A stretch of DNA of 64,000 nt from Escherichia phage UP19: the sequence record OX638288. The stretch is one strand, 5' to 3'. The notes below the pieces were generated by a model. It had not been told where the DNA came from, ran no database searches, and worked only from the letters and a program-made list of their open reading frames with translations. Shown in pieces: positions 5,707 to 62,760 of the stretch (its first letter is position 1; each line of letters starts with the position of its first letter). Made by a program: the position numbers and the translations under genes.

Positions 5707-6156
5707 ATGAATACTTATATGACTCGCGGTAACGTTCTGTCTGCTGGTGCTACTACTGTTGCTTATGTTAAGAATGGCGAATACCAAAATGGTAAGCCTT
5801 CTAAAGAAATCTCAGCTCAGCCAGGCTTCTACTTCTTTGTTAAAGGTGAAGCAGATTCTCGTGTCGTAGCCGCTCGCTTTTATGTCGGTAACCAACGTTC
5901 AGCTCAAGGTCTTGATGGTATTGTGGCTAACATCCGTAAGAAACGTTCTCAATCAGCTCGCACTATGGCAGTGAATGGTGTGGTGTATGAAGTTCTTTAT
6001 GTGCCAGCTTCTAAAATGAAACCTCTGACTACAGGCTTTGGTAAAGGTCAAATTGCAATGGCTTTCACTCGCAATCATAGTTCAGACCTTCAGACACTGG
6101 AAGAAATGAACCGTATGTTGGCCGATAACTTCAAATTCGTTCTGCAGGCTTACTAA
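5707..6156 (+). CDS. ndd: Ndd nucleoid disruption protein
   Basis: 149 aa; C-terminus ...[11 protein letters not shown]...[20 protein letters not shown] matches recalled T4 Ndd. Confidence 0.9.
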
Positions 6157-6837: not shown

Positions 6838-8217
6838 ATGGCTGATGTAATTGATACCCTTTTTAAACAATCCTTAGATGTTTACGATGATGCTTTTACT
6901 CGTCGTGACTTAAAAAGCATTATCGACAATGAAGCGCTGGCTTACGCAATGTATACTGTCGAAAACCGCGCCATTCCAAATATGATTGACGGCTTTAAAC
7001 CAGTGCAACGTTTTGTAGTTGCTCGTTGTCTTGATATGGCTCGTGGTAATAAAGAAAAATTCCACAAACTGGCTTCTATTGCAGGTGGTGTAGCCGACCT
7101 TGGATATCACCATGGTGAAGGTTCTGCTCAGGAAGCAGGGGCTTTGATGGCTAACACATGGAACAACAACTTCCCACTGTTGGATGGACAAGGCAACTTT
7201 GGTTCTCGTTTGGTTCAAAAGGCTGCGGCCTCTCGATATATCTTTGCTCGTATTGGAAGTAACTTTGCAAAAGTTTATAAGGATACGGAATATGCTCCGG
7301 TTCATGCAGATGTTGAACACAAGCCACCGGCTTTTTATCTGCCTATTATTCCTACTGTTCTTCTTAATGGCGTTTCCGGTATTGCAACCGGTTATGCAAC
7401 TAATATTCTTCCTCATAGTTTTGATTCTGTTAAGAAAGCTGTATTGCAAGTTCTTCAGGAAAAACGAGTAACCAAGCCGAAGGTGGCTTATCCGGAATTC
7501 CGTGGTGATGTTGTTGAGATTGAACCAGGAAGTTATGAGATTCGTGGAACGTATAAGTTCACATCTCGAACCCAAATGCATATCACGGAAATCCCATACA
7601 AATACGACCGTGAAACATATGTGGCCAAGATATTAGACCCTTTAGAAGACAAAGGGTATATCACATATGACGACGACTGTGACGAGAATGGTTTCGGCTT
7701 CAAGGTAAAAATTCGTAAAGAATATGAATTACCTACTGAAGAAAATAAGAAGCACGAAAAAATCATGAAGGACTTCGGATTAATCGAACGTCGTTCACAA
7801 AACTTAACAGTTATTAATGAGAAAGGTAAGCTCAAGGTTTACGAAGATGCTGTTGAACTGATTCGTGATTTTGTTGAGGTCCGTAAGACCTTTGTACAAA
7901 AACGTATTGATGGTAAAATCATCGAAACCGAACAGGCATTTAAACTGGCACTGGCTAAAGCCACATTTATCAAAGATGTTATTGATGGTGTAGTGGTTAT
8001 CCAAGGTAAGACCCGTAAGGTTTTAACCGAAGAATTAGCCGGTAATAAAGTCTACGGCGAATACGCTGATAAACTCGTAGCAATGAATATTTTCCATATC
8101 ACGTCCGATGAAGCTAAGAAACTGGCTTTGGAAGCCAAGGCTAAGAAAGAAGAGCATCAATACTGGAAAACCACTGATGTTGTAACTGAGTATGTTAAAG
8201 ATTTGGAGGCTCTATGA
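6838..8217 (+). CDS. 52: DNA topoisomerase II medium subunit gp52 (GyrA-like)
   Basis: 459 aa (T4 gp52 442 aa); N-terminal region resembles the GyrA/ParC cleavage-religation domain. Confidence 0.9.
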   Translation: MADVIDTLFKQSLDVYDDAFTRRDLKSIIDNEALAYAMYTVENRAIPNMIDGFKPVQRFVVARCLDMARGNKEKFHKLASIAGGVADLGYHHGEGSAQEAGALMANTWNNNFPLLDGQGNFGSRLVQKAAASRYIFARIGSNFAKVYKDTEYAPVHADVEHKPPAFYLPIIPTVLLNGVSGIATGYATNILPHSFDSVKKAVLQVLQEKRVTKPKVAYPEFRGDVVEIEPGSYEIRGTYKFTSRTQMHITEIPYKYDRETYVAKILDPLEDKGYITYDDDCDENGFGFKVKIRKEYELPTEENKKHEKIMKDFGLIERRSQNLTVINEKGKLKVYEDAVELIRDFVEVRKTFVQKRIDGKIIETEQAFKLALAKATFIKDVIDGVVVIQGKTRKVLTEELAGNKVYGEYADKLVAMNIFHITSDEAKKLALEAKAKKEEHQYWKTTDVVTEYVKDLEAL

Positions 8218-8435: not shown

Positions 8436-8663
8436 ATGAAATTTAAAATCGAAAACGAAATCGTTAAAGCTAAAAATGCTCTGACTGCTAACAAACTGGT
8501 TGTAGATGGTATTGAATATGATATATGTGGAGTTCGTGAAGAAAAACCCGGTGTTCTGACTTTCTTCACAATGATTTTTAAATTTAAAGGTGACACAGAA
8601 TTCAAACAGTTTGATTTTGCCACTGAAGACGAAATCGAAGTTCGTAATCTGAACATTAAGTAA
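8436..8663 (+). CDS. hypothetical protein
   Basis: 75 aa ORF downstream of promoter cassette. Confidence 0.5.
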   Translation: MKFKIENEIVKAKNALTANKLVVDGIEYDICGVREEKPGVLTFFTMIFKFKGDTEFKQFDFATEDEIEVRNLNIK

Positions 8664-12930: not shown

Positions 12931-15900
12931 TTATTTTAACAATGATTTAACTAAAGCTTTAAGTTCTTCAATCTCTGATTTCAATTCTGCTATTTCGGCA
13001 GTGTGCTCATTGATTGCAGCTGTATTTAAACCAATTACACCGTTATAGTTCAAACGAAGTAAAGCTTCACCATCAGGGTCACCTTCAACCAATTCAGGTA
13101 AAATAGCTTGAACTTCTTGAGCAATTAAACCGGCGTTAGGTTCCCATTTCTGATTACCTTCTTCATCTAGGCCTCGCTTCTGCATATAAGTGTAACCGTT
13201 AATTTTGGAAAGCTTCTCAGAAGCATTTTCAAATTTAACAAGGTCTTTTTTAACGCGAATATCAGAACGGACATAAACATCACGGACAAACGTTGAATAG
13301 TTATCATTTGCCTGAACGAGATGCCCATGAGAAACGATAGCTCTTCCAACTTCCGACCAAAAAGCCCCGGATGAATCCCAAAGCCCAGGATGAGATTGAT
13401 AGCCTGACCCCCAGCTTGCAATATGCACACCATTGGCAACCATGTTAATTCGGCCATCACCGCCATGGGTTAAACCAGTATCATTATCACCGATGGCGAT
13501 AGATGCTCCACCCCATATAGGAATTGTACCTACGCCTAGGTTTACGCTGGCACGTAAACCAGCAGGTGCAACAAAATCACCATTAGACTGAAATACAAAT
13601 ATTGCATTAGGATGGCTTGCATCGCCGCTTTCAGCAGAACCCACACGAATAACAGCAGAACCCCAGGTAGCCGCTCCACCCAATCTAATAATACCGAAGT
13701 CTGCTTTAGTAGAATATCCGTCAGTAACTAGAGTGCTTTTTCCTTTGATAATTGGCATATAACTATCTTTAGGAACGGATTCACCAAAGTCAACGAAATA
13801 AGGAGCTTCTGTTTGCCATTGATTTCCGTAACCATGACCTTGAGTATTAACCCATGCTCGACCGTTAACATACATGCGATAATAATTCATCTGCATTGCT
13901 AAGCCAGTACCGGAAAGTTCTACGTTGAAAGCCCCATCATTAGTGATGTACATACCCGAGTTGGTAGCATAACTGTAAAGAGCTATCCCGTTATCATCGC
14001 CACCTTTACCGACATACCAGTTGCTGGTACCATTTACATCGGAACGGATATGCGAGCTATTACCTGTGGTTGTTTTTAATACTAATGCATCACCAGGAGC
14101 TTCGATAGTCAGCTTACCTGTCATTGTGTCCCCGCCTTTACCAACACGAGTACTCACCGCTGCATCAAGGTTAGTAGCACCACTATACTTGTTCCAAATA
14201 GAACCTGCAATATTACCATCAGTATTCATGAAAGCTGTACCGGCATATAAGCGGTTCAGAGCTATGAAGTTACCATCTTTGGTAAAGCGCCAATATTTTA
14301 ATCCTGTAACATCGCCATCACCATGCAAATCACCTTGAGCAACAATTCGGTATTCGCTCGTAGCGCGGTCCATACCTTGAGTAACAGTTACATTCGAATC
14401 GATATTTTTCTGCTTAGTAATAGGATAAAATGCTTGGGTTGCAGCATCGAGTGCTTGATACAACGGAGCTTTAGTCGTATTCTGGTTGGCATAAGATGCG
14501 CCGTTACTATTAGGGAATTCCAATGCACCATTACCCCTAAAATAAACCTGGTCTGCTTCTAAGTTAGGGATTTTAACCCGGCCCGTGTCTAACATAATAC
14601 TTAATGGGCGTAATGGGCCTAATCCGCCACTTTCGCCGGCATTAACATTGGTTGGGATAATATGCAGCTGGTCTTCTGAATTTCGGAAAATAACACCATA
14701 TTTATCATTCCAAATACGAAGACCACTAGCAGCGCGGACTTTAATTTCATTGGAAACATACAGATTGCGTTTTAAGGATGTATCTTGACTGACAGACAAT
14801 CCTTCGACGATGTTCATCGTGCCGTTTAAATAAGATTCGACTTTACCTGCTGTGGTTCGTTGAATATAGTGCATCCAGCCTGTAGCATCAGATGTTTCCA
14901 ATACGTTTTTACGAGAACCACCTACCGTATTAAAAGTGTCACCCCAACCTTTGAGCTCTATATTATCAACTGAACTATATCCTGAGGTACTTCCTTTAAA
15001 AAGCACAGTGGAAGCGTTACCACGACCGTCAATATTAACCGAACCACCACGGACTTCAACGTTACCAGGAGTAACCAACAACCCACCATCAGTGTTAACG
15101 TTTGTTACACCTTTACCACGGAAATAATGGTGGTATTTACCACTCTGATGATAACCTAAAAGAGTCTGTCCATCACCAAAGCCGTTTTTATCATTAGTAG
15201 TATTAACAATAACTAATGGATAGTTTTGGGTTGTAGGGAGAATTAAATCAGAACCGTTGGTTGAATAACCCGCAACTAACTGTTTAAGGCTTGTAACTTC
15301 AGTAGGAGTTGTAAGTAAAGTATAAGCCCCATTATTAACTGTATGGAACTGGCCGTCTTGTCTCCATTTCAAACCTGTGTTATTGTCGCCAAGTGCGATA
15401 GCAGACGGGCCTAATGTTGAGTATCCTGAGCTATCCCCAGGTAGGCCAACGGAAAGAGAATTTGATGTTTTGACATCTCCATCTGCGTTAAATGACCAAA
15501 GATACTTAGCTGTTCCGGCTGTAGAAATAGAATGCCATGAAATACCATTTACATTATTAAGTTCACGATACCTAATTCCATCGACAGCGTGTCTACTTAT
15601 TCTAAGATAGTTAATAGATGTTGCGCTTGAACTTGCAGGATTATTATTTGCCAATGAAGATATATCATAATCAAGAGCTGATTTATTACCAGTATCAACT
15701 GTATTAGTATAAATTACTGGAGATTTCACCGATGTTCCGCTGGAAATAGACGGAGCATAAAATAAACCGTCGCCGTTGAATGCAAAAATATTAGATGTTG
15801 AATTAGTATAATCCTGGACACGAACGTTCAAGATTTGCTTGGTATTTCCTGGGCGTGATTGTGAATAAATTATGCCTCTTTCACGCGCATCAGCCAAATC

Positions 15901-18130: not shown

Positions 18131-21100
18131 TTATGGTGTATCAATCCATTCGAATTTAACAGAACGAGTTACTGGGTCCGGAATTATGCGAACGTTACCA
18201 ATACGTAACCAATCACGAATGGTCAAGTTACTCATTGAAGCGTTGTCAGAAGGTAGTGCACCTATATCAGACGGTTGAGGTGGGTTACCGCCATCAAATA
18301 CCTGAACAAATCCAGACCAAGCATTTTTATTTTGTTGCCAAGTACGGGTCCAGCGAGTGGTGCTTCCGTCTGCAGTATTTGGATAGGTAATCCAATCCTG
18401 GTAAAGTGAATTCAGAGTGTTACCGAACTGAGTTAACGTACCAGGCGATTTAACTTCTTCACCACGAACCAAATACGGCAACCCTGTTACTTCGTTAATT
18501 TTTTCAACCATTTTAAAATAACCTGGGAATTGGTTATATGTAGCTGAATCATTAACGTCAACAGACCAAAAGCCAGTGTTATCTGCATCAGGTTTTCTAG
18601 AATAAAGGTCTGCAGGTTTAGTACCTTGAGAACGAATTCTTGAGTTAACAGTTAAACCACCGGAGTTAATAGTAGCTCCTTTAGCAATAATTAACCCTTC
18701 ACCAATTGTAACCTGACCGGATTGATTATTAATTGTTAATGGACGTAATGCATTAAATCCACCTGTTTGCTCACCTGCATGAGACAGCACAAAAAAGGTG
18801 TCATTACCAGCATTACGAATAATGAAACCGTAATTACCGTTAATAGCTCGGAAGGCGTTTGGACTATAAGATATGATTTCACCCTGTGCGGTCACCGAAC
18901 GACCGAATGTTGCAACACCATTCACATTCATTAACCCGGAAGCATTCACATTTATCGGCATTACAGTGCCATTAATGCTAAACGCTATATTACCATCTTT
19001 ATTGCGTTGAGAATAAAAATGGTTAGACGTTTCATCACCAACTTCAAACACGGTAGAACGACTCGTATCCGAACCGCCACCATACTGGTTACCCCATACA
19101 CGGATGCTCATTGACTGAACCGGGTTTGAACCGGATGCAGGACCTTTTTCGAAAATGATACTGGTCGGTAATCCTGTATTACGGATGGTAAATGTTCTAT
19201 TAGCAGCTAAAGAACCACCAAATTCACCGGTACCGCCTGTAGCCAACTGGCCATCCACTCTAATGTTTTTACGAAGGGTTAATGTTCCTTCAACTATTTG
19301 GTCGATATCTCTCCTGACGAACTGTGAGCTATCCAGGTTGTCCAATTTATCAGAGTCAAAAGCCTTACCTTTAATCGGAAGATAGTGAGTTAACGCCGTA
19401 TTCATTTGAAGAGGGGAAATAGCAAAGCCATCGTCTTCAAATTTAGCCAGGTTAGCAACAGAACCATTAGTATCGTCACCTTCCCAAGTGGCTGTACCTG
19501 TAGTTAATTTAACATATCCTCTACGGGCAGAAGTAGCTTCCCAGGATTTTTCCTGCTGGACGATATATTTGTAATGCTTAGGACTAAACGCTTTATTACT
19601 TACCGTACCACTAATAACTTCGGTCTGAGTAGCAAGCTGGATAATACCTTCAGCATTTTCGGTGGCCTTTTTAGCTTGAAGCTTAAGCGGAGTAATGATT
19701 GTTTTATCATCGGTTCCGGTATTAACTTCGGTTTGGGTAGCTAAACGAGCCGTACCACGTTGGGTATTACTTGCTTCACGGATATCTAGTGTATAATGGT
19801 TCCATAAGGTTCCTGATTCAACCAAACCACTGGCTGCTGAGACAGAAGTTCTAGCAGTATTATCAAATCTTGTTTTAATTTTCAACGGAGTTGAAATAAC
19901 ATTATCTAATACACCTGCATCAAATTCTACTTGAGTACCAATACGAGCAATACCAGTTAAAGTCTCTGTAGCCTTCCTATCATTTAACGTCTTAGGCGTT
20001 ACCGCACGAGTATAATCAGTTCCAGCATCAGTCTCTGCTTGCGTAGCAATTTCAATTAAACCATGATTAGTATCAGTAGAACGACGAGCACCTAATGTTT
20101 CAGGTGTGACAACCGAGTTACTAAAACCAGGGTTAGTAGCACCAGCATTAACTTCGGCTTGCGTAGCAAGATATACAGCACCTTGGTTATTTTGGTCAGC
20201 TTTATACTGGTCCAAAGCTTTAGGAGAAATAACTAAAGTAGTAGTGTTCTTATTATAAACGTTGGTACCTACAGTGTCCCTAGCAGTCGCAGGAGTGGTG
20301 TCCACCGTAGAGGTATATTTTACAATACCTGAAAGACTTTCAGTGCCCTGGCGCGTCTGTAGCTTCTTAGGAGTGATAATGGTTGTATCATCAACACCTG
20401 CATCAGTTTCCTGTTGCGTAGCAATTTCAGCTACACCACGACGAGTTTCGGTAGCAGTACGTTCGTTTAATTTCTTAGGAGAAATAATCAAATCGTCCTG
20501 GAAAGCGAAAGTTGTATTCTGGTTTACCTGAGCAGTTGTAGCAATACGAGCAATACCACGACGTGATTCAGTAGCTACACGATTGGCTAAAGTCTGCGGA
20601 GTAATTGCAAGTTCTTTTTCAGGATTATTTTCATGGTCGACGTTTGCCTGGGTCTGAGACGCAAGGGCAATAACACCAAGACGAGCACGAGTTAAATCAT
20701 CCTTAGAATCCACACGTTCTACAGTAGGAACGTTCTGAGCAACAACCCAATATTTACCGCCTGTAGTAGTGTCTTCGATATAGCTAAGTTCAATAACCGG
20801 AGTATAACTTAAGTTGCCGTTGAAGGTCAATACGTCATTCAGAACCCATTCAGTATCCGGTGGATATTCCGAACGTTTAGGGAACTGGAGCAATTGAACC
20901 GAAGAAGCAATTTTATCACCTAAAGCGGCCTTAATATTTACTGTCTGTGCTTTACGAAGATAGTTCAATGCGATTTTAATAGTATCGCCTTGTGCTACGC
21001 TAGTAGGTAAAGTGATGTTAATAGTTTGTGGAGTTGTGTTATTAGGACCAAAAACAATAATACTTTCGTTAGCCAAAAGTTCTACGTCATCACGAATAAC

Positions 21101-26632: not shown

Positions 26633-27754
<1,122 letters not shown>

Positions 27755-27755
<1 letters not shown>

Positions 27756-28615
27756 TGAAACAATACCAATTTTTAATTAAAGATATCCTGGAAAATGGCT
27801 ACGAAACCGACGACCGTACCGGCACCGGTACAATTGCACTGTTCGGTACTAAATTACGTTTTGATTTAACTAAAGGCTTTCCTGCAGTAACAACTAAAAA
27901 ATTAGCATGGAAAGCCTGCATTGCTGAGCTCCTTTGGTTCCTTTCGGGTTCAACAAACGTTAACGACCTTCGTTTACGTACTCACGGTTCATTAATTGGT
28001 GGTAAAACTATTTGGGACGAGAATTATGAAAATCAGGCCAAAGATTTAGGTTATCATAGCGGTGAACTCGGTCCTGTATATGGGAAACAATGGCGAGATT
28101 TTGGTGGTGTCGACCAGGTTGTAGAAATCATCGACCGTATTAAAAAGATGCCTAATGACCGACGTCAAATCGTATCTGCATGGAACCCGGCTGAAATCAA
28201 CCAGATGGCTCTTCCACCATGTCATTGTTTTTATCAGTTCAACGTTCGTAACGGCCATCTTGACCTCCAGTGGTACCAACGTTCTGTTGACGTGTTCTTA
28301 GGATTACCATTTAATATCGCCTCTTACGCCGCTCTTGTGCATATTGTAGCTAAGATGTGTAATCTTATTCCTGGCGATTTAGTGTTCTCAGGCGGCAATA
28401 CGCACATCTATTCTAACCACGTTGAACAATGCCAGGAAGTTCTTCGTCGTGAACCTAAAGAACTGTGTGAACTGGAAATTAATTGGCCTGAAGGATTCTC
28501 TGATTGGAGCACGACATTACAGCTTCATTGGGTAACAGAGCATATGGTCCATGAAGATTTTAAACTCATTGGTTACGAATCACACCCTACCATTAAGGCT
28601 AAAATGGCTGTATGA
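27755..28615 (+). CDS. td: thymidylate synthase, uninterrupted (no intron)
   Basis: 286 aa from MKQYQ...; ThyA active-site region ..ALPPCH.FYQF..; single continuous ORF (ORF track starts at TTG 27743). Confidence 0.9.
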
Positions 28616-28676
28616 AAATTCAAATAATCTGTACTCTGTTTTTGGTTATTATGGTCGGACTGAATTTGGTGCTATA

Positions 28677-28970
28677 ATGAGAGTCTGTAGAGTTGTTAAC
28701 AAGTATAAAGAAGATTTTGATGTCAATATCCAGCGTGGAACCATGTGGGGTAATCCATTTAAAGATGGTACCCGCGAGGAAAACATCAAGAACTTTAAAG
28801 AATACTTTATTGCTAAAATAAAATCGGGTGAAATTAAAAGAGAACACCTTGAAACCCTTAGAGGTATGCGAATAGCGTGTACCTGTAAACCTAAGGACTG
28901 TCATGGGGATGTGATAGCCCTGGTTGTTAACAAACTTTTCAAAGATACGTTCTCATTAGAAGACCTATAA
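28677..28970 (+). CDS. DUF4326-like small protein
   Basis: ...WGNPF...C.C.P..CHGDV... motif pattern; start uncertain (ORF 28551 overlaps td). Confidence 0.5.
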   Translation: MRVCRVVNKYKEDFDVNIQRGTMWGNPFKDGTREENIKNFKEYFIAKIKSGEIKREHLETLRGMRIACTCKPKDCHGDVIALVVNKLFKDTFSLEDL

Positions 28971-29036
28971 ATATCAGTCCATGCTTAACAGGTTCTATGT
29001 TATTATAGATGTAGAACCTAACATATTGAGGAAATT

Positions 29037-31292
29037 ATGCAAGTACAAAAGAGTAGTGGTGTATCCCAAGATTTTGACGCACAAAAAATTATTAAAGTTC
29101 TGACTTGGGGCTGTGAAGGAACCCAAATCGACCCCTATGAATTATACGAAGAAATCAAAACCCACCTTCGTGATGGTATGACTACCAAAGATATCCAAAA
29201 TCTGACTGTTAAGGTAGCGGCCAACCTTATCTCGGTTGAAGAGCCTGACTATCAGTATGTTGCTGCAAAGCAATTGATGTTTGCACTGCGTAAAGAAGTT
29301 TACGGTCAGTTTGAACCACGTAGTTTTATCGACCATATTTCCTATTGTGTTAACGAAGGTAAATATGACCCTGAGTTGTTATCTCGTTACTCTGCAGAAG
29401 AAATTACTTTCTTAGAATCCCATATTAAGCATGAACGTGATTTCGAATTGACCTATGCAGGTGCGATGCAGCTTAAAGAGAAATATCTGGTTAAAGATAA
29501 AACCACCGGTAAAATCTATGAAACTCCTCAGTTCGCTATCATGTGTATTGGTATGGCCTTACACCAAGATGAGCCAGGTAACCGTTTAGCACATATTATT
29601 CGTTTTTATGACGCTGTAAGTACTCGACAGGTTTCGTTGCCTACTCCTATTATGGCTGGAGCACGTACACCGACTCGTCAATTTAGTTCTTGTGTGGTTA
29701 TTGAAGCTGGCGACTCACTGAAATCTATTAACAAAACTGCGAACTCGATAATTGAATACATTTCTAAACGTGCAGGTATTGGTATCAACGTTGGTATGAT
29801 TCGTGCTGAAGGTTCTCGTATTGGCATGGGTGAAGTCAAACATACCGGTGTTATTCCATTCTGGAAGCATTTCCAGACTGCTGTTAAATCATGTTCACAA
29901 GGTGGAATCCGTGGCGGCGCTGCTACTGCTTATTATCCTATTTGGCATTTGGAAGTTGAAAATCTGCTCGTTCTGAAAAACAACAAGGGTGTCGATGAAA
30001 ACCGTATCCGTCATATGGACTACGGAATCCAGTTGAATGACCTTATGATGGAACGTTTCGGTAAGAATGATTACATCACGCTGTTCAGTCCTCATGAAAT
30101 GGGCGGTGAGCTTTATTATTCTTATTTCGAAGACCAAGAACGTTTCCGTGAATTGTATGAAGCTGCTGAAAAAGACCCTAGTATTCGTAAGAAACGTATT
30201 AAAGCACGCGACCTCTTCGAATTGTTTATGACCGAACGTTCAGGCACTGCACGAATTTATCCACAGTTCGTTGATAACACCAACAACTTTACGCCATTTA
30301 TTCGTGAGAAAGCTCCTATTCGTCAGAGCAACTTGTGTTGTGAAATTGCTATCCCAACTACCGATGTTAACAGTCCGGACGCTGAAATTGGGTTGTGTAC
30401 GCTGTCTGCATTCGTGTTGGATAACTTTGATTGGCAAGACCAAGACAAAATCAATGAGCTGGCTGAAGTACAGGTACGTGCACTTGATAACCTGTTAGAT
30501 TATCAAAGCTATCCTGTTCCTGAAGCTCTGAAGGCTAAAAAGCGTCGTAACTTGGGTGTCGGCGTTACTAACTACGCAGCATGGCTGGCAAGCAACTTTG
30601 CTTCTTATGAAGATGCTAACGATTTAACTCATGAACTGTTTGAGAGATTACAATATGGACTTATCCGAGCATCAATCAAATTGGCCGAAGAAAAAGGACC
30701 TTGCGAGTATTATTCAGACACTAAGTGGTCTCGAGGCGAATTACCTATCGACTGGTACAATAAAAAGATTGACCAAATCGCGGCCCCAAACTATGTTTGT
30801 GACTGGTCGGCGTTGCGGGAAGACTTGTCTAAACATGGCATCCGTAATAGCACATTATCAGCACTTATGCCATGCGAGTCAAGCAGCCAAGTTTCCAACT
30901 CTACCAACGGTATCGAACCTCCGCGCGGCCCGGTAAGTATTAAAGAATCTAAAGAAGGTAACTTCCGACAGGTAGTTCCTAATGTAGAACATAACCAAGG
31001 CCTTTATGATTACGCTTGGAGCCTCGCTAAGAAAGGTAATAAACCTTATCTTACCCAAGTAGCAATTATGTTGAAATGGGTTTGCCAATCAGCATCAGCG
31101 AATACGTATTACGACCCTCAGAACTATGAGAAAGGAAAAGTTCCTATGTCAGTAATGCTTGATGACCTGTTATATTTCTGGTACTTTGGTGGTAAGAACC
31201 TTTACTATCATAACACCCGTGACGGCTCTGGTACCGACGATTATGAAATCGAAACTCCTAAAGCCGATGATTGTGCAGCTTGTAAGCTTTAA
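29037..31292 (+). CDS. nrdA: ribonucleotide reductase class Ia alpha subunit
   Basis: 751 aa; N-terminal ATP-cone, catalytic cysteines, C-terminal CxxC tail. Confidence 0.95.
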   Translation: MQVQKSSGVSQDFDAQKIIKVLTWGCEGTQIDPYELYEEIKTHLRDGMTTKDIQNLTVKVAANLISVEEPDYQYVAAKQLMFALRKEVYGQFEPRSFIDHISYCVNEGKYDPELLSRYSAEEITFLESHIKHERDFELTYAGAMQLKEKYLVKDKTTGKIYETPQFAIMCIGMALHQDEPGNRLAHIIRFYDAVSTRQVSLPTPIMAGARTPTRQFSSCVVIEAGDSLKSINKTANSIIEYISKRAGIGINVGMIRAEGSRIGMGEVKHTGVIPFWKHFQTAVKSCSQGGIRGGAATAYYPIWHLEVENLLVLKNNKGVDENRIRHMDYGIQLNDLMMERFGKNDYITLFSPHEMGGELYYSYFEDQERFRELYEAAEKDPSIRKKRIKARDLFELFMTERSGTARIYPQFVDNTNNFTPFIREKAPIRQSNLCCEIAIPTTDVNSPDAEIGLCTLSAFVLDNFDWQDQDKINELAEVQVRALDNLLDYQSYPVPEALKAKKRRNLGVGVTNYAAWLASNFASYEDANDLTHELFERLQYGLIRASIKLAEEKGPCEYYSDTKWSRGELPIDWYNKKIDQIAAPNYVCDWSALREDLSKHGIRNSTLSALMPCESSSQVSNSTNGIEPPRGPVSIKESKEGNFRQVVPNVEHNQGLYDYAWSLAKKGNKPYLTQVAIMLKWVCQSASANTYYDPQNYEKGKVPMSVMLDDLLYFWYFGGKNLYYHNTRDGSGTDDYEIETPKADDCAACKL

Positions 31293-31345
31293 TAAAATCT
31301 GATTATAATTGACTCATGGATGAGTCACTAACAAATGAGAATAAT

Positions 31346-32527
31346 ATGTCTACAGTTTTTAATACTACCCCAGTTGATGTTTTAGCCGAACCGATGTTCT
31401 TTGGTTCAGGTTTGGGTATTGCTCGTTACGATATCCAACGCCATAAAGTATTCGAAGAGCTTTGTGAAAAGCAGTTGAGTTTCTTCTGGCGTCCAGAGGA
31501 AGTTAACTTGATGATGGATGCAGCCCAGTTTAATAAGCTTCCACAATTCCAGCAAAATATTTTTACCAATAACCTGAAGTATCAATCACTTCTGGATAGT
31601 ATCCAGGGACGTGCTCCTTCTGCTGCACTCCAAGCCTTGATTTCAGACCCTAGCCTTGATACATGGGTTGCCACATGGACCTTTAGTGAGACCATTCACT
31701 CTCGTTCTTATACCCATATCATGCGTAACCTCTATACAGACCCATCTAAGGTATTTGATGAAATTCTGTTAGATGATGCAATTATGAAACGCGCTGAATC
31801 TATTGGTCGTTATTACGATGACGTTATTGAGAAAACCCGTATTTGGCAAACTTCTGTAGCAGAAATGGAAAAATTGGAAGAGGAAGCTAAAGTAGAATCT
31901 TTTGCTCTTGTTGGGCTGGATATGCGTATTGCTAAAGAGAAACGCGAACTAATGCGTTCTCTTTACCTCTGCCTCCATGTAATCAACGCATTGGAAGCTA
32001 TTCGTTTTTATGTATCTTTTGCATGTACCTTTAACTTCCACAAGAATATGGAAATCATGGAAGGCAATGCTAAGATTATGAAGTTCATTGCACGTGATGA
32101 ACAGCTTCACCTCAAGGGCACTCAGTACATTATTCGTCAACTTCAACTTGGCACTGATGGCGATGAATGGGTTAAAATTGCTCAAGAGTGTGAACAAGAA
32201 GCAGTTGATATTTTCATGGAAGTTAACCGTCAAGAAAAAGAATGGGCTGCCCACCTATTCAAAGATGGTACTTGCCCTGGATTAAATACTCAGAACATGG
32301 GTGCTTTTGTCGATTACCTGACAGTTTCTCGTATGAAGCAATGTGGCTTACCATGTCCTATTACTGATGCCCCTACTCGCCATCCATATCCTTGGATTCG
32401 CGAATACCTGAACTCTGATGCCGTACAGGCTGCTCCTCAGGAAGTGGAAATCAGTTCTTACCTTGTAGCACAAATTGATAATGATGTCGATGAAAAAGTA
32501 ATGGCATCATACAAGAAATATTTTTAA
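31346..32527 (+). CDS. nrdB: ribonucleotide reductase beta subunit, uninterrupted
   Basis: ferritin-like di-iron motifs; start set at MSTVFN (ORF track 31316); no intron. Confidence 0.9.
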   Translation: MSTVFNTTPVDVLAEPMFFGSGLGIARYDIQRHKVFEELCEKQLSFFWRPEEVNLMMDAAQFNKLPQFQQNIFTNNLKYQSLLDSIQGRAPSAALQALISDPSLDTWVATWTFSETIHSRSYTHIMRNLYTDPSKVFDEILLDDAIMKRAESIGRYYDDVIEKTRIWQTSVAEMEKLEEEAKVESFALVGLDMRIAKEKRELMRSLYLCLHVINALEAIRFYVSFACTFNFHKNMEIMEGNAKIMKFIARDEQLHLKGTQYIIRQLQLGTDGDEWVKIAQECEQEAVDIFMEVNRQEKEWAAHLFKDGTCPGLNTQNMGAFVDYLTVSRMKQCGLPCPITDAPTRHPYPWIREYLNSDAVQAAPQEVEISSYLVAQIDNDVDEKVMASYKKYF

Positions 32528-32554
32528 GGAACGGGGCTTCGGCCCCTTATTGCT

Positions 32555-32968
32555 ATGAAAGAAATCGCAGATGAATTTAGCTTTATCAAGTACGTTACAC
32601 TGGAGCTCCAAACAGATGCTACTATAGCCCCTATCACAGTTCCAAATAAACAAAATGTCATATATGCTATAGCGGTTGATGATATACTAGTCTACATCGG
32701 GAAGACTAAAAATCTTCGTAAGCGCATCAACTACTACCGAACAGCTATTAATCGTAAGGACCAAACGTCGGATTCGACCAAGTCCATTCTGATTCATGAA
32801 GCATTAATGGCAGGTAAAAAGGTAGAGTTCTATGCTAGACAGTGCTTTAATCTGTCGATGACCAACGAACTTGGAACTATGTCAGTTGAGACCATGTCTC
32901 TTGAAGAGCCAATGTTCATAAAGAAATTTAATCCACCTTGGAATACCCAACATAGGATAAAGCAATGA
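32555..32968 (+). CDS. denA: endonuclease II (GIY-YIG family)
   Basis: 137 aa (T4 EndoII 136 aa); GIY-YIG-like ..VIYAIAVDDILVYIGKTKNLRKRINYY..; position after nrdB. Confidence 0.75.
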   Translation: MKEIADEFSFIKYVTLELQTDATIAPITVPNKQNVIYAIAVDDILVYIGKTKNLRKRINYYRTAINRKDQTSDSTKSILIHEALMAGKKVEFYARQCFNLSMTNELGTMSVETMSLEEPMFIKKFNPPWNTQHRIKQ

Positions 32969-34113
32969 TTGAATTATATGATAACTTAATGGGCCTGGTT
33001 AAAAACTCGACTAAATCTAAGTTCTTCTTTAAAGACTTTCAGAGTGCGCTAGGAGTCAACTATCGCATCTTTAGTTATAACTATGCATCGTACAGTGATT
33101 GGTTGGAAGACGGCGCACTAGAGTGCCGAGGCATTATGTTTGAAATGGACGAGAACGGTCCGGTACGTATTGCTGCTCGTCCTATGCAAAAGTTCTTTAA
33201 CCTCGACGAAAACCCGTTGACCATTGGTTTGGATTTATCACAAGGAAATATCGACCTCGTAATGGCTAAGGAAGATGGTTCCTTGATTTCTACCTTCATG
33301 GACCGACAATATCTTTCTGTTAAATCTAAAGGCTCTATCCATTCATCAATGGTGCATGATTCTTTACGTTTCCTTCGACTCCCTGAAAACGAGGCCTTCG
33401 CTGCTCGTTTAGAAGAAATTACTAAAGCAGGCTATACATGTAACCTCGAGTATGTTTCGCCTACTAACCGTATTGTGCTGGCTTACCAAGAAACAAACCT
33501 TATCTTACTTAACGTTCGTAATAACGAAACGGGTGAATATATCCCTTACGCTGAACTGTTTAAAGATGGCGCTCTGCGTAAGCATTTGGTTAAAAGCTAT
33601 GAACTCTCTGAAGGTGATTTTGTTGACAATATCCGTAAACAAGAGGGTATTGAAGGCTTTATCTTTGTACTTAAAGATGGCACGTTCTTTAAACTCAAAA
33701 CCGCTTGGTATAGCGCACTGCATCATACCAAAGATTCCATTAATAATAACGAACGTTTATTTGAAGTTGTAGTGGCTGGTGGAACTGATGACCTCCGAGG
33801 TTTGTTCAGTACGGATTCGTTTGCTATTGAGAAAATCAATACATTTGAACGTATCCATTTAGACTACTTAGAACAGTCCTTGGCTTTGTTAGAAGCAGCA
33901 TATTCTCAGCTCAAGGGCCGCGACCGTAAGGACTACGCTGTTACCGGTCAGTTAATCCTCAAAGACTTCCCAGGGCTGTTCTCTATTCTTATGCAGGCGT
34001 ACGTAGGCGGTATTAATTATGATACGGTCGTAGACCAGATTAACTCTGTGTTCTTGAAAAATCATAAGGCCCAAATCCCTGAAAAATATTTGAAAGAAAT
34101 TGTTATAGAGTAG
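32965..34113 (+). CDS. rnlA: RNA ligase 1 / tail fibre attachment catalyst (gp63)
   Basis: 382 aa; ...YRIFSYNYASYSDWL...ECRGIMFEM...PVRIA.RPM.KFFNL.ENP... matches recalled T4 Rnl1. Confidence 0.9.
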   Translation: MIELYDNLMGLVKNSTKSKFFFKDFQSALGVNYRIFSYNYASYSDWLEDGALECRGIMFEMDENGPVRIAARPMQKFFNLDENPLTIGLDLSQGNIDLVMAKEDGSLISTFMDRQYLSVKSKGSIHSSMVHDSLRFLRLPENEAFAARLEEITKAGYTCNLEYVSPTNRIVLAYQETNLILLNVRNNETGEYIPYAELFKDGALRKHLVKSYELSEGDFVDNIRKQEGIEGFIFVLKDGTFFKLKTAWYSALHHTKDSINNNERLFEVVVAGGTDDLRGLFSTDSFAIEKINTFERIHLDYLEQSLALLEAAYSQLKGRDRKDYAVTGQLILKDFPGLFSILMQAYVGGINYDTVVDQINSVFLKNHKAQIPEKYLKEIVIE

Positions 34114-35404: not shown

Positions 35405-35433
35405 TTTACAAACTCTTGGGAGCAGAGTATAAT
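35404..35433 (+). promoter_or_regulatory. early promoter (GTTTAC / TATAAT) in hairpin
   Basis: GTTTACAAACTCTTGGGAGCAGAGTATAATGCTCC. Confidence 0.5.
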
Positions 35434-35467
35434 GCTCCTACGGATTATAAAAATTGAGGAAATTATT

Positions 35468-35946
35468 ATGACATTACGTGATAACAGTTTTGTGGCTAAG
35501 CCTGAATACATTTCAAGTATTAAATCTCCTGTATTACAAAAGCTCCTTAAACTAGGGTCCTGTGCAAGCACTCCTATTGAAAAGAAGGCAACTTTCGATT
35601 TTGCTTGGGCTATTGTGGACGGTATTGATGTAGTAAGACAGGTAACTTTTTATGCTCCAGGGTCTATTGAGCCTTCACAGATTATTAATTTGAACGGAAG
35701 TAATTATATTACCATCCAACAGTGGTATCGTATGATGCGACCTGTTTGGGAATACCCTGAATTCATTGAAGAGTACAATGAAAAAGAACGTATTCGTGAG
35801 CTAGTAAAAAGTTTTGAATACGCAGCTAAACGCCACGGCCAGATGCAGCAAGCTGTGGCTTTAGGTGATGTTGATGAAAAATCAGCATATGAAAGTGGTA
35901 AACTTCTGAAAACCTGTCGCGAAGAACTTTATAAGGAGCTTGGTGT

Positions 35947-35950
<4 letters not shown>
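35468..35950 (+). CDS. hypothetical protein
   Basis: start at ATG after TTGAGGAAA ribosome-binding site (ORF track 35432 begins inside the promoter). Confidence 0.5.
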
Positions 35951-58483: not shown

Positions 58484-58711
58484 TTAGAACTCTTCTTGCT
58501 CTTCGTCATCCATAGATTCCAATTCAGCTCGTTTACCTGCTAAGGCATCACGAACACTGATATCGTCCGAATCTCGAAGTTCAGCTTCTTTACTACGAGT
58601 TTTGTAATACTTTTCCAATTCCTTCAAACCGTCCATGGTTTGACAAGAACTAATTTTAGACATGAAGCTCTCGATAGAGGCTTCATAGATAACTTCTTTA
58701 AAGGACTTCAT
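58484..58711 (-). CDS. hypothetical protein with acidic C-terminus
   Basis: 75 aa ORF downstream of HNH gene on minus strand. Confidence 0.45.
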   Translation of the reverse strand: MKSFKEVIYEASIESFMSKISSCQTMDGLKELEKYYKTRSKEAELRDSDDISVRDALAGKRAELESMDDEEQEEF

Positions 58712-59403
58712 AAATCCACCTGTTTCATTAAATTTCTGATTTTGTGACGAGAAAGACCCGTGGCTTCGGAAGCTTGTTTCATCGAGCCATATTCAACACC
58801 ATTTATAGTAACCTTTTTAGCTGCTGGGTTTTTAGATGGGTCTTTATATCTTTCTTTAGCTTTATCTGAAATTTTCTTAGAAGCTTCTGGCGTATGATTT
58901 TTACCATACATGCCGTTGCCAGCACCGGAATTTCTTTCAGATATAGCTTGACATTGTTCTTGCATGTATTTATAAGGATTCGCTTTTTTAGTTGCGGATA
59001 TTTTATCGCCCCATAAAATAGGCCTACCTTTAAATAAATTGCTCATGTATTCTTTATGGGCTTCAGTGTGGTGCTTACCATAAAATGGATTTCCTTCGCC
59101 AGTCTGAAGAATTGCCAATTGTCTACGTTCCCACCCGTATGATTTACTAAATTGTCTTTTATGGGTCCTGGAACTCATACCCATAGAAATAACAGCTTTT
59201 ATGAGACCGTAGTTATTTGGATAAATTTTAGCCAGTAATTTATGAGCTATAAAATGTTCTTCTGGGGTAAGGCGTACTCTATTTTCCCGAGTATCGGGCC
59301 CGCCCATACAAGTCGGGATTATATGATGGGACTCGGTGTACCCGAGAGGTTTAGAAGCCTTTCGGCTTCTAATTAAATTGTCATAAATCTTTTGATAATT
59401 CAA
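58708..59403 (-). CDS. HNH homing endonuclease with NUMOD3-like repeats and C-terminal DNA-binding region
   Basis: 231 aa; HNH core ...ESHHIIP...GGPD...N...LT.EEH...H; two ...GxxNPFYGKHHTEAHK.../...GNGMYGKNHTPEASKK... NUMOD3-like repeats; C-terminal HTH-like ...ASEATGLSRHKIRNLMKQ. Confidence 0.8.
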   Translation of the reverse strand: MNYQKIYDNLIRSRKASKPLGYTESHHIIPTCMGGPDTRENRVRLTPEEHFIAHKLLAKIYPNNYGLIKAVISMGMSSRTHKRQFSKSYGWERRQLAILQTGEGNPFYGKHHTEAHKEYMSNLFKGRPILWGDKISATKKANPYKYMQEQCQAISERNSGAGNGMYGKNHTPEASKKISDKAKERYKDPSKNPAAKKVTINGVEYGSMKQASEATGLSRHKIRNLMKQVDL

Positions 59404-60896
59404 ATTTGGACCTCTTTCATTACGTAATTAAAACGTTCATCTGCGTAACGTTGAATACGTTCAAGACCATGTTTAAGAGCGTAGTTTAAATGAACATATT
59501 TCTTTTTAGCCATAGATGATTTAGGTTTCACACCCATATCATCAATAATATCAAATACCTGGGCTGTTGATTTGGAAGCATGCTTACGTAGTACACGACC
59601 TATGGTCTGAAGTACAATAATTTTTGATTTTACCGGATGAGCAAATACAACATGGTGAAGGTTCTTAACGGAAATACCAGTAGAGAACACACCGTAACTT
59701 GCCACAACAATAATACCCTTACCATTTTCCGCCATTACTTTCAGAGCATTACGCGTTTCGGTATTAACTTCACCTGATACGTAATAAACTTCTTTATGTT
59801 GCTCTTTAACCATTTCAAAAAGAGTTTTACCGTGTTCGATGTTTTTAAACATCAGGAATACATTCTCTTCTTTCTTAGCGAGTTTAACAGCTAAATTAGC
59901 AACCCATTTATTACGACGAGTAGCCTTAGTAATGACCTTTATTTCTGATTGATAATCTTTACCTTTCATCTTAACAGTGAATTCATCCGGATAACGAAGG
60001 AAAATACTGTTGATTTTAAGGTCTGTAACCTGTCCTTCTTCCATTAACTGCGAAGTGGATACCGGCTTAAACACATCACCAAACAAACCCATATATTGCA
60101 TTAAATTAGCTTTACCGTCTTTTAAAGAACCGGACAAACCGAATTTAAACATACAGTTGGTTAGGCCTTCGATGATGGTAGAAATTGATTTACCTGTCGC
60201 CAAATGGCATTCGTCATTCATAAACATACCAAACTGAGCAAACCATTCTTTAGGTTGTTTAATAGCCGTTTGATAAGTTGAAACATAAATCATTGCATCG
60301 GAATCACGTGCAGTACCTGAACGAATACCAAGCATAGCAGCTTTAGGGAACAAACGATAATCGATGAAGTCATTAATCATCTGGTCAACAAGGGCAGTAG
60401 TAGGAACTAAAATAAGGATTTTACCTTCATAGTTCTCAACATAATATCGACTCAGGAGCGCCTGAATCAATGATTTACCTGCGGATGTAGGTAAATTCAG
60501 AATTGCGCGACGTTTTGTCAGACCGTTGTATACGGCTTCATTCTGATACCAATGTGGCTCAATCTTGGTAGAACCCGAATAAATCTCTTGTGAGGCTACC
60601 CATGAGTCAAAATCTTCGCGAGAAATATCTTCCTGTTCAAGAATACGTGGGTCAATCCACAGAGAGTATTCAAACTGGTCAGCGAATTTTTTAATTTGTG
60701 GGACTAGACCATACGGAAGTTTACGGTTATAATCTAGAAGACGAATTCTCCCGTCCCATTGCCCGTACCGGTATTTAGGGTTAAATTTATATCCATCAGC
60801 TTCAAAGCTGAAATAGTCTCTGAGTTCGTAGAAGGTGGATTCATCACACTCAATACGAACATGACTAAAATTATCAAAATGTACTTGAATTTGCAT
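59400..60896 (-). CDS. uvsW: UvsW SF2 DNA helicase
   Basis: 498 aa (T4 UvsW 502 aa); helicase motifs LPTSAGKS, MNDECH; high similarity along recalled T4 UvsW. Confidence 0.95.
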   Translation of the reverse strand: MQIQVHFDNFSHVRIECDESTFYELRDYFSFEADGYKFNPKYRYGQWDGRIRLLDYNRKLPYGLVPQIKKFADQFEYSLWIDPRILEQEDISREDFDSWVASQEIYSGSTKIEPHWYQNEAVYNGLTKRRAILNLPTSAGKSLIQALLSRYYVENYEGKILILVPTTALVDQMINDFIDYRLFPKAAMLGIRSGTARDSDAMIYVSTYQTAIKQPKEWFAQFGMFMNDECHLATGKSISTIIEGLTNCMFKFGLSGSLKDGKANLMQYMGLFGDVFKPVSTSQLMEEGQVTDLKINSIFLRYPDEFTVKMKGKDYQSEIKVITKATRRNKWVANLAVKLAKKEENVFLMFKNIEHGKTLFEMVKEQHKEVYYVSGEVNTETRNALKVMAENGKGIIVVASYGVFSTGISVKNLHHVVFAHPVKSKIIVLQTIGRVLRKHASKSTAQVFDIIDDMGVKPKSSMAKKKYVHLNYALKHGLERIQRYADERFNYVMKEVQI

Positions 60897-61632: not shown

Positions 61633-62760
61633 ATGGCTTTTACTGTAAGTATAGCCGGCACAGCGTCTATTAAAATAGGCGAAAGTGCTAACTACACTGC
61701 TACCGCAACAGGTGCAGCTGTAGAAGGAACCATTACATATGTATGGTCTATTGATGGTGCTTCTAATCCAGAAGCAACCAATGTTTTGAAATATACAGGT
61801 GCTTCACCTGCAGGTAAGAAAGTTTTAAAAGTAGTAGCAACTTCTACTCCAGCTGAAGGCGAACCTGAGGTAGCTGAAGATACTTTTGAAGTTACCGTAG
61901 CTAATAAGACCATGTCTATTTCTTTGGCTTTGGACCCTATTTCTGTTTCTAAAGAAGTTGGCCAATCTCAAGTTGTTACTGCTAACGTGACGGGTGCACC
62001 TGCAGGTGCAACAATCGCTTATGTTTGGAAACGTAACACTAGCGTAATATCAGGTCAAACCGGTAAAACTATTACCATAACCGAAGCGGCGGAAGCAAAT
62101 TACACTTTGAACTGTGAAGTTACTGTTACCGCCCCTGAATATGACCCGGCTACCGCTACCAAAGGTGTTGCGGTAACTTTTGTTAAGAAAACTATGTCAG
62201 GTGTTTCTGTTACTTTAACGCCAACCTCTATTAATGTTCCTGAAGGAACTCCGGCTTCTTTTAAAGCTACCGTAGTCGGCGCACCTGCTGGTGCTACTTT
62301 TGCTTATTCTTGGAAGAAAGACGGTTCATCAGTCGCAGGTGCCACAGATACTTTAGTGGTTGATACTAGTGCTGAAGGTTCGCAGGTTATTGAAGTTTCT
62401 GTTGTTGTTTCGGCTACCAACTATAATCCTGTGACCGTCACAAAATCCGGTAATGTAACAATTACGGCTAAAGTCGCTCCTGAACCGGAAGGTGAACTAC
62501 CTTATGTACACCCACTTCCTGTTCGTAATTCAGCGTATATTTGGGCCGGCTGGTGGGTTATGGATGAAATCCAGAAAATGACCCTTGAAGGTAAAGACTG
62601 GAAAACTGATGACCCTGATAGCGATTATTATCTCCATCGCTATACTCTTCAAAAAATGGTTGCCGATTATCCAGAGGTTGATGTACAAGAATCACGTAAT
62701 GGAAGAATTATCCATCGCACCGCTTTAGAAGCTGGTATTATATACGATTACGTTTATTAA
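61633..62760 (+). CDS. hoc: Hoc highly immunogenic outer capsid protein
   Basis: 375 aa (T4 Hoc 376 aa); three Ig-like repeats then C-terminal capsid-binding domain. Confidence 0.85.
   Translation: MAFTVSIAGTASIKIGESANYTATATGAAVEGTITYVWSIDGASNPEATNVLKYTGASPAGKKVLKVVATSTPAEGEPEVAEDTFEVTVANKTMSISLALDPISVSKEVGQSQVVTANVTGAPAGATIAYVWKRNTSVISGQTGKTITITEAAEANYTLNCEVTVTAPEYDPATATKGVAVTFVKKTMSGVSVTLTPTSINVPEGTPASFKATVVGAPAGATFAYSWKKDGSSVAGATDTLVVDTSAEGSQVIEVSVVVSATNYNPVTVTKSGNVTITAKVAPEPEGELPYVHPLPVRNSAYIWAGWWVMDEIQKMTLEGKDWKTDDPDSDYYLHRYTLQKMVADYPEVDVQESRNGRIIHRTALEAGIIYDYVY

Follow-up and report, generated by a model that had tools for sequence, protein, structure and literature searches.

It has been known since the late 1980s that T-even-like phages differ in whether they possess the introns in td and nrdB and the mobE gene. 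The genus Dhakavirus has the coliphages JS98 and JS10 as its founding members. The intron-free configuration of the td-nrdA-nrdB locus is already known for JS98-type phages. For instance, the review by Petrov et al. (2010) gives the homing endonuclease genes of JS98 and JS10 as 'None' (PMC2993671, Table 5), and both phages were among the mobE-less phages compared by Wilson and Edgell (PMC2790892). Moreover, T4 has been described as an outlier among its relatives (PMC2988022). In T4, the thymidylate synthase gene td contains a 1017-bp intron with I-TevI, the gene nrdB for the small subunit of the class Ia ribonucleotide reductase contains a 598-bp intron with a defective I-TevIII, and a 697-bp segment with mobE and nrdB.1 lies between nrdA and nrdB; the phage also possesses nrdA.2. 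Here, we describe the same locus in a 64-kb stretch of DNA from Escherichia phage UP19 (64,000 nucleotides, sequence record OX638288), which is referred to as the window. The analysis supports the conclusion that the locus has neither a td intron nor an nrdB intron, and neither MobE nor another free-standing endonuclease gene between nrdA and nrdB, and that td and nrdB are translated directly without splicing being required. It is highly probable that the locus is best explained as an uninvaded Dhakavirus module in the ancestral empty state, with sensitive target sites and a MotA-type promoter for nrdB.

All coordinates are given in the numbering of the whole window, and the locus genes, which were defined from the map of open reading frames (ORFs) and their translations, are located on the plus strand (Table 1). 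Alignment of positions 26900-33000 with the T4 locus (NC_000866) by blastn revealed that both loci are colinear with exactly three breaks. The first break (28302/28305) lies opposite the T4 td intron, the second (32022/32025) opposite the T4 nrdB intron and the third (31296/31351) opposite the segment with mobE and nrdB.1. Using the reconstructed spliced T4 genes, the empty insertion points could be placed between positions 28303 and 28304 in td and between 32024 and 32025 in nrdB. The orthologous genes of both phages occur in the same order and their products share 82-88% amino acid identity. A first-pass annotation made from the sequence alone had described td and nrdB as single uninterrupted ORFs of 286 and about 393 codons, with about 53 bp between nrdA and nrdB. 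This description was confirmed: td matches its Pfam family over the full length and is colinear with the spliced T4 gene, the Td proteins being equally long and 82% identical, nrdB encodes exactly 393 amino acids, and the nrdA stop codon ends at 31292, while nrdB begins at 31346. No intron-like insertion was found in td or nrdB, and at the exon junctions and the nrdA-nrdB spacer only the three insertions of T4 break the colinearity. The annotation had also correctly named the introns in T4 td and nrdB and mobE between nrdA and nrdB of T4, to which nrdB.1 has to be added as a second occupant of this slot. The three genes of its cluster were rightly identified, while nrdA.1 between td and nrdA and an ORF of 68 codons between frd and td went unmentioned. 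Finally, its term 'intron-free, endonuclease-free' is valid for the locus and not for the entire window, which contains a Mob-type HNH gene at 58708-59403.

The covariance model RF00028 for group I introns was used for searching the window at two thresholds. At the Rfam gathering threshold of 50 bits there was no match in the window. This result was discarded as evidence of absence because the loci of T4 and of the phages Bp7 and fDHCT2 also gave zero matches. At an E-value threshold the model recovered both T4 introns (40.3 bits, E 9e-8; 35.7 bits, E 2e-6), whereas no group I match was obtained in 26900-33000 at E<=10 or across the entire 64-kb window at E<=1. The absence of group I introns is therefore real because the search was performed with a working T4 control, and the covariance-model check suggested by the first-pass annotation agrees with its view of the locus. 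As a point of method, the gathering threshold overlooks the T4 td (40.3 bits) and nrdB (35.7 bits) introns and the Bp7 intron, and default covariance-model scans thus under-report ORF-bearing phage introns. The ORF listing also contains no HNH or NUMOD ORF in the 53-bp spacer between nrdA and nrdB, where T4 and the phage LHE83 have genes of 426-642 bp. Since a naive covariance-model search at the gathering threshold misses genuine T4 and Bp7 introns and has low power, a hidden or degenerate remnant of an intron or endonuclease gene might be suspected to have escaped detection in the spacers or ORFs. This suspicion is effectively refuted and hardly credible, because the E-value search detects the T4 introns and yields none in the window, the proteins have the lengths of the spliced T4 proteins with no insertion, and the 53-bp spacer, which intron-less relatives have conserved, leaves no room for a coding sequence.

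The nucleotide sequence of the locus is 96.5% identical to that of the phage EcWhh-1 and 95.6% identical to those of JS98 and JS10, and the gene order is the same. Over 5.2 kb, the module is syntenic with JS98-type genomes and 93-96.5% identical to them at the nucleotide level, and most of the 64-kb window can be aligned to JS98. Judged by these similarities, the window can be assigned to a JS98-like coliphage of the genus Dhakavirus. JS98, JS10 and EcWhh-1 all possess the order frd, 68-codon ORF, td, nrdA.1, nrdA, a spacer of about 53 bp, nrdB, denA and rnlA, and they likewise lack introns and endonuclease genes at the locus (95-96.5% nucleotide identity). The proteins of EcWhh-1 differ from those of the window by one residue in Td, six in NrdA and one in NrdB.

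The locus is carried by 872 records of the whole phage collection. Counted over all phage records, the td intron is matched in 260, the nrdB intron in 129 and mobE/nrdB.1 in 143, the latter over the full length in only 20 of the 143. Records matching the locus with at least 90% identity were regarded as Dhakavirus-level records (n=47), and insertions were judged from the span of the match. Only three of these 47 records, namely those of Bp7, LHE83 and fDHCT2, contain an insertion, and the td intron is present in none of the 47. The extra length of phage 04086, which had been considered as a td/nrdA insertion, is due to tandemly duplicated locus sequence and is probably an assembly artefact. 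The empty state is the norm in the genus and the majority state of T4-like phages, and T4 is the outlier.

The three occupied genomes have a backbone like that of the window (91-95% nucleotide identity). Bp7 carries a 1088-bp nrdB intron with a full-length I-TevIII exactly at the empty nrdB point of the window, and this intron is 99% identical to that of the phage RB3. To trace its origin, those nrdB sites were considered informative at which T4 differs from the Dhakavirus consensus. Around the insertion point, from -52 to +23, nine of the ten informative sites of Bp7 are of the T4 type, while nearly all of the other approximately 160 informative nrdB sites are of the Dhakavirus type. The T4-type exon tract flanks the intron on both sides (5764-5816 and 6905-6927 in the Bp7 locus L003). 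Given this co-conversion tract, the intron must therefore have been acquired secondarily from a Tequatrovirus-type donor. Thus, the comparison of the sequences provides direct evidence for an intron having crossed from Tequatrovirus into Dhakavirus, a step that was regarded as undocumented in the 2010 review (PMC2993671). By the same comparison, the intron-less nrdB allele of the window appears to be the background of the genus.

In LHE83, a gene for a full-length MobE protein of 213 aa with 61% identity to T4 MobE is located between nrdA and nrdB (3846-4487 in L009), while fDHCT2 has a dam-like methylase gene in this slot, just past the conserved spacer hairpin (4631-5434 in L005). Within Dhakavirus, insertions have occurred repeatedly in the nrdA-nrdB slot. 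The C-terminus of LHE83 MobE corresponds to T4 'nrdB.1', which suggests that mobE and nrdB.1 of T4 are a split version of a single gene.

The sites recognised by the three endonucleases can be located in the window and look intact and of the sensitive type, as far as sequence comparison can tell. A possible objection is that the sites are empty since synonymous changes in the targets confer resistance to I-TevI, I-TevIII or MobE. Indeed, the 38-bp equivalent of the I-TevI homing site differs from T4 at 9 of 38 positions, all of them synonymous, and the element-bearing phages T4 and LHE83 have changes in the MobE target region. However, the resulting identity of 76% equals the gene-wide background (77.6% in the blastn alignment of td), and the substitutions are not enriched in the site. 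The window retains the CAACG cleavage motif at 28277-28281 (positions -27 to -23), as far from the td insertion point as in T4, including C1 and G5, which are the critical positions for I-TevI (PMC5009752). The region around the nrdB insertion point is 95% identical to the T4 exon junction. The nicks made by MobE in nrdB map to nucleotides 122-126; all mobE-less phages have AAG as codon 42 and T4 has CGG (PMC2790892). In the window, codon 42 is AAG, the form of the nicked-type alleles, followed by the block encoding FFWRPEE. Moreover, Bp7 and LHE83 demonstrate that Dhakavirus backbones can be invaded. Immunity as the reason for the empty sites is very improbable, and the comparison with T4 revealed no sign of immunising substitutions in the td or nrdB target sites. 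With sites that look intact and of the sensitive type, the locus should therefore be a homing recipient when cells are co-infected with an element-bearing phage.

The 53-bp spacer is nearly invariant across Dhakavirus and contains the candidate signals for nrdB expression. A MotA-box-like motif overlaps the nrdA stop codon and fits T4-type MotA-dependent middle promoters, as judged from the motif. The pattern GCTTTA-N11-13-TANNNT occurs 12 times in the window compared with 3.4 expected occurrences, and none of 100 shuffled sequences reached 12; its positions include 110, 6732, 22969, 31286, 39788, 45193 and 63077. The putative MotA-type promoter over the nrdA stop would drive nrdB; downstream of it lie a short conserved hairpin and then GAG as the likely ribosome-binding site of nrdB. 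The hairpin was dismissed as a terminator, since it lacks a T-run, its fold energy is unexceptional, and a terminator scan of 31293-31345 found none. In mobE-less phages the middle promoter of nrdB is located at the 3' end of nrdA or in the spacer, whereas an intrinsic terminator in the nrdA-nrdB slot has been reported for all phages with mobE (PMC2790892). The window spacer, with a promoter motif and no terminator, agrees with the mobE-less pattern of that study. The short terminator-less spacer, the putative middle promoter and AAG at codon 42 are shared with T-even phages that lack both mobE and the nrdB intron, such as T2 (PMC2790892). The T2-type phages belong to a different genus (about 80% nucleotide identity), and the Tequatrovirus phage fPS-65 stood in as the mobE-less Tequatrovirus in our comparisons.

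Taken as a whole, the locus represents a conserved module for deoxynucleotide precursors, (frd)-ORF68-td-nrdA.1-nrdA-nrdB-(denA), in which the three 'parasite slots' of T4 are unoccupied. The empty state would be ancestral, that is, the condition of a lineage that was never or has long not been invaded, and no special adaptation. Several points weigh against this explanation. First, sequence alone cannot separate 'never invaded' from 'invaded and precisely cleaned'. Second, the susceptibility of the sites is deduced from sequence, and the td homing site does deviate from that of T4 at the nine positions mentioned above. Third, the roles of the promoter and the hairpin rest on motif matches, and the fold energy of the hairpin is not exceptional (z = -0.94). 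Fourth, the third-position identity to Tequatrovirus nrdB is raised over a stretch (codons ~210-300) that includes the insertion point at codon 227. Compared with fPS-65, it is 0.82 in this part and 0.57 elsewhere, and the raised value is reached by 5 of 5000 permutations (65 of 5000 for T4).

The last point bears on the idea that the nrdB intron, and perhaps mobE, was once present and was precisely lost, either by recombination with an intron-less allele or in a homing cycle of gain, degeneration and loss, the empty site then being cleaned rather than naive. A raised synonymous identity of this kind would be expected from an old intergeneric conversion tract, and Bp7 demonstrates that such transfers into Dhakavirus occur. 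On the other hand, a comparable patch (0.80-0.85) is found at nrdA codons ~559-630, where no insertion site is known, the nrdB patch coincides with 100% amino acid identity, for which codon-level constraint is an alternative, and it is common to all intron-less Dhakaviruses. At the td insertion point there is no patch, the synonymous identity being 0.28-0.47, and no intron remnant was found with RF00028 in the locus and the whole window. We therefore regard a secondary loss as quite unlikely. That the nrdB allele carries an old footprint of intergeneric gene conversion at the insertion point, the Dhakavirus lineage having once gained and precisely lost an intron, is likewise a doubtful proposition to which we give little credence. 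The patches of high synonymous identity (0.8-0.95 versus a background of about 0.55) extend over 31970-32245 in nrdB and 30711-30926 in nrdA.

In contrast to T4, in which frd and td overlap by ATGA, the window contains the 68-codon ORF between these genes. It overlaps the frd stop codon with its start (ATGA) and the td start codon with its stop (TAATG). The ORF is absent from T4, Bp7, fDHCT2 and LHE83, in which frd and td have a 4-bp overlap, and it was left unannotated in the JS98 record, although the DNA is present. The window copy is 97.6% identical at the nucleotide level to that of fPS-65, whereas the flanking genes of both phages are only 66-86% identical. Furthermore, the first 50 nucleotides of fPS-65 td are identical to those of the window and Bp7, and 84% identical to those of T4. 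The high identity of the ORF together with the Dhakavirus-like start of fPS-65 td points to a recent export, and the ORF may thus have been transferred between the genera from a Dhakavirus-type donor to fPS-65. A homologue is also located directly upstream of td in a Klebsiella T4-like phage. A protein search yielded 18 close clusters. The sole match of the protein is phrog_9550, and there was no sequence match in Pfam, PADLOC or PDB. The AlphaFold model of three helices is weak (pLDDT 65) and has no significant fold match in PDB.

A hypervariable segment lies within nrdB. One form is shared by the window and EcWhh-1, and another, which is 14 amino acids shorter, by JS98 and fDHCT2; nrdB of JS98 thus carries a different allele of the segment than the window. 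LHE83, the Dhakavirus with MobE, has the form of the Tequatrovirus fPS-65. The sequence shared by LHE83 and fPS-65 is consistent with co-conversion linked to MobE.

The remaining coding features conform to the orthologues. Td comprises the entire Thymidylat_synt domain, and the PPCH motif with the catalytic Cys and QRSVD are present in the translation. NrdA has the Pfam domains ATP-cone, Ribonuc_red_lgN and lgC, aligns to T4 nrdA as one colinear high-scoring segment pair with no interruption, and has a CAAC pair at the C-terminus. NrdB belongs to Ribonuc_red_sm, starts with MSTVFNT as in T4 and has FFWRPEE with the conserved radical-transfer Trp at codons 46-52. By their domains, both proteins would be classified as subunits of a class Ia ribonucleotide reductase. 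The nrdA.1 homologue is annotated as NrdA.1 in EcWhh-1, Bp7 and JS98. Alternative gene models were dismissed in two cases. The 290 codons of td in the ORF listing reflect an upstream TTG, and the ATG form has 286; an in-frame ATG of nrdB at 31316 (403 amino acids) lies within the hairpin without a Shine-Dalgarno sequence, and the homologues all begin with MSTVFNT. The GIY-YIG domain of DenA might suggest a homing endonuclease. This was rejected, as denA is a conserved EndoII orthologue encoding a nuclease for host DNA. At the place equivalent to the hairpin between nrdB and denA, a terminator is annotated in fPS-65.

Table 1 Features of the nucleotide-precursor locus and of the Mob-type gene in the window (aa, amino acids)
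Feature	Position	Strand	Details
frd (dihydrofolate reductase)	26971-27552	+	193 aa; Pfam DHFR_1 E 1.5e-19; 82% aa identity with T4 Frd
68-codon ORF (68 aa), phrog_9550	27549-27755	+	between frd and td
td (thymidylate synthase)	27755-28615	+	ATG start; 286 aa; PF00303 1-266/266, 329 bits, E 2e-98
I-TevI homing-site equivalent, 38 bp	28277-28314	+	contains the empty td insertion point between 28303 and 28304
nrdA.1 homologue	28677-28970	+	97 aa; Pfam DUF4326 E 8e-22; 63% identity with T4 NrdA.1
nrdA (class Ia ribonucleotide reductase, large subunit)	29037-31292	+	751 aa; 88% aa identity with T4
MotA-box-like middle promoter GCTTTA-N12-TATAAT	31286-31309	+	overlaps nrdA stop codon; putative, from motif
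nrdA-nrdB spacer	31293-31345	+	53 bp; no ORF, no terminator
Spacer hairpin TGACTCAT-GG-ATGAGTCA	31310-31327	+	8-bp arms
GAG Shine-Dalgarno	31337-31339	+	in spacer, likely for nrdB
nrdB (class Ia ribonucleotide reductase, small subunit)	31346-32527	+	393 aa; Pfam PF00268 E 2e-36; 84% identity with spliced T4 NrdB
MobE nicking region equivalent (nrdB nucleotides 114-131)	31459-31476	+	codon 42 AAG (Lys, 31469-31471)
nrdB hypervariable segment, codons ~160-205	31823-31960	+	at least 4 allelic forms among relatives, differing in length
nrdB insertion region, +/-30 bp	31995-32054	+	3/60 mismatches to T4 exon junction (95% identical)
Hairpin GGGGC-TTCG-GCCCC	32533-32546	+	between nrdB and denA; terminator-like, UUCG tetraloop
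denA (endonuclease II)	32555-32968	+	137 aa; Pfam GIY-YIG E 9e-5; phrog_1111 E 1e-63; 70% identity with T4 DenA
rnlA	32965-34113	+	382 aa; Pfam T4 Rnl1 domains
Mob-type HNH/NUMOD3 homing endonuclease gene	58708-59403	-	231 aa; TTG start overlaps uvsW stop

Outside the locus, the Mob-type HNH gene has inserted precisely at the junction of uvsW (59400-60896) and uvsW.1 (58484-58711), and the first 72 residues of its product share 59% identity with T4 MobE. Of 56 matching phage records, only 6 contain the gene, and JS98, JS10, EcWhh-1 and most other Dhakaviruses are devoid of it. The regions 8441-8656, 35462-35779 and 61656-62184 have no blastn match in JS98, and the same is true for 13135-14818 and 18476-19618 within the tail-fibre genes. 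A 172-codon ORF at 35432-35950 has no Pfam match, and 61633-62760 encodes a divergent Hoc-like repeat protein.

By itself, the locus of the window matters little, and it serves as a clean reference allele with an 'empty site'. In comparison with Bp7, LHE83 and fDHCT2, it illustrates how the same three slots have been filled independently within one genus. Moreover, the sequence comparisons point to exchange at this locus both from Tequatrovirus into Dhakavirus, as in the case of the intron, and in the opposite direction, as is probable for the 68-codon ORF.

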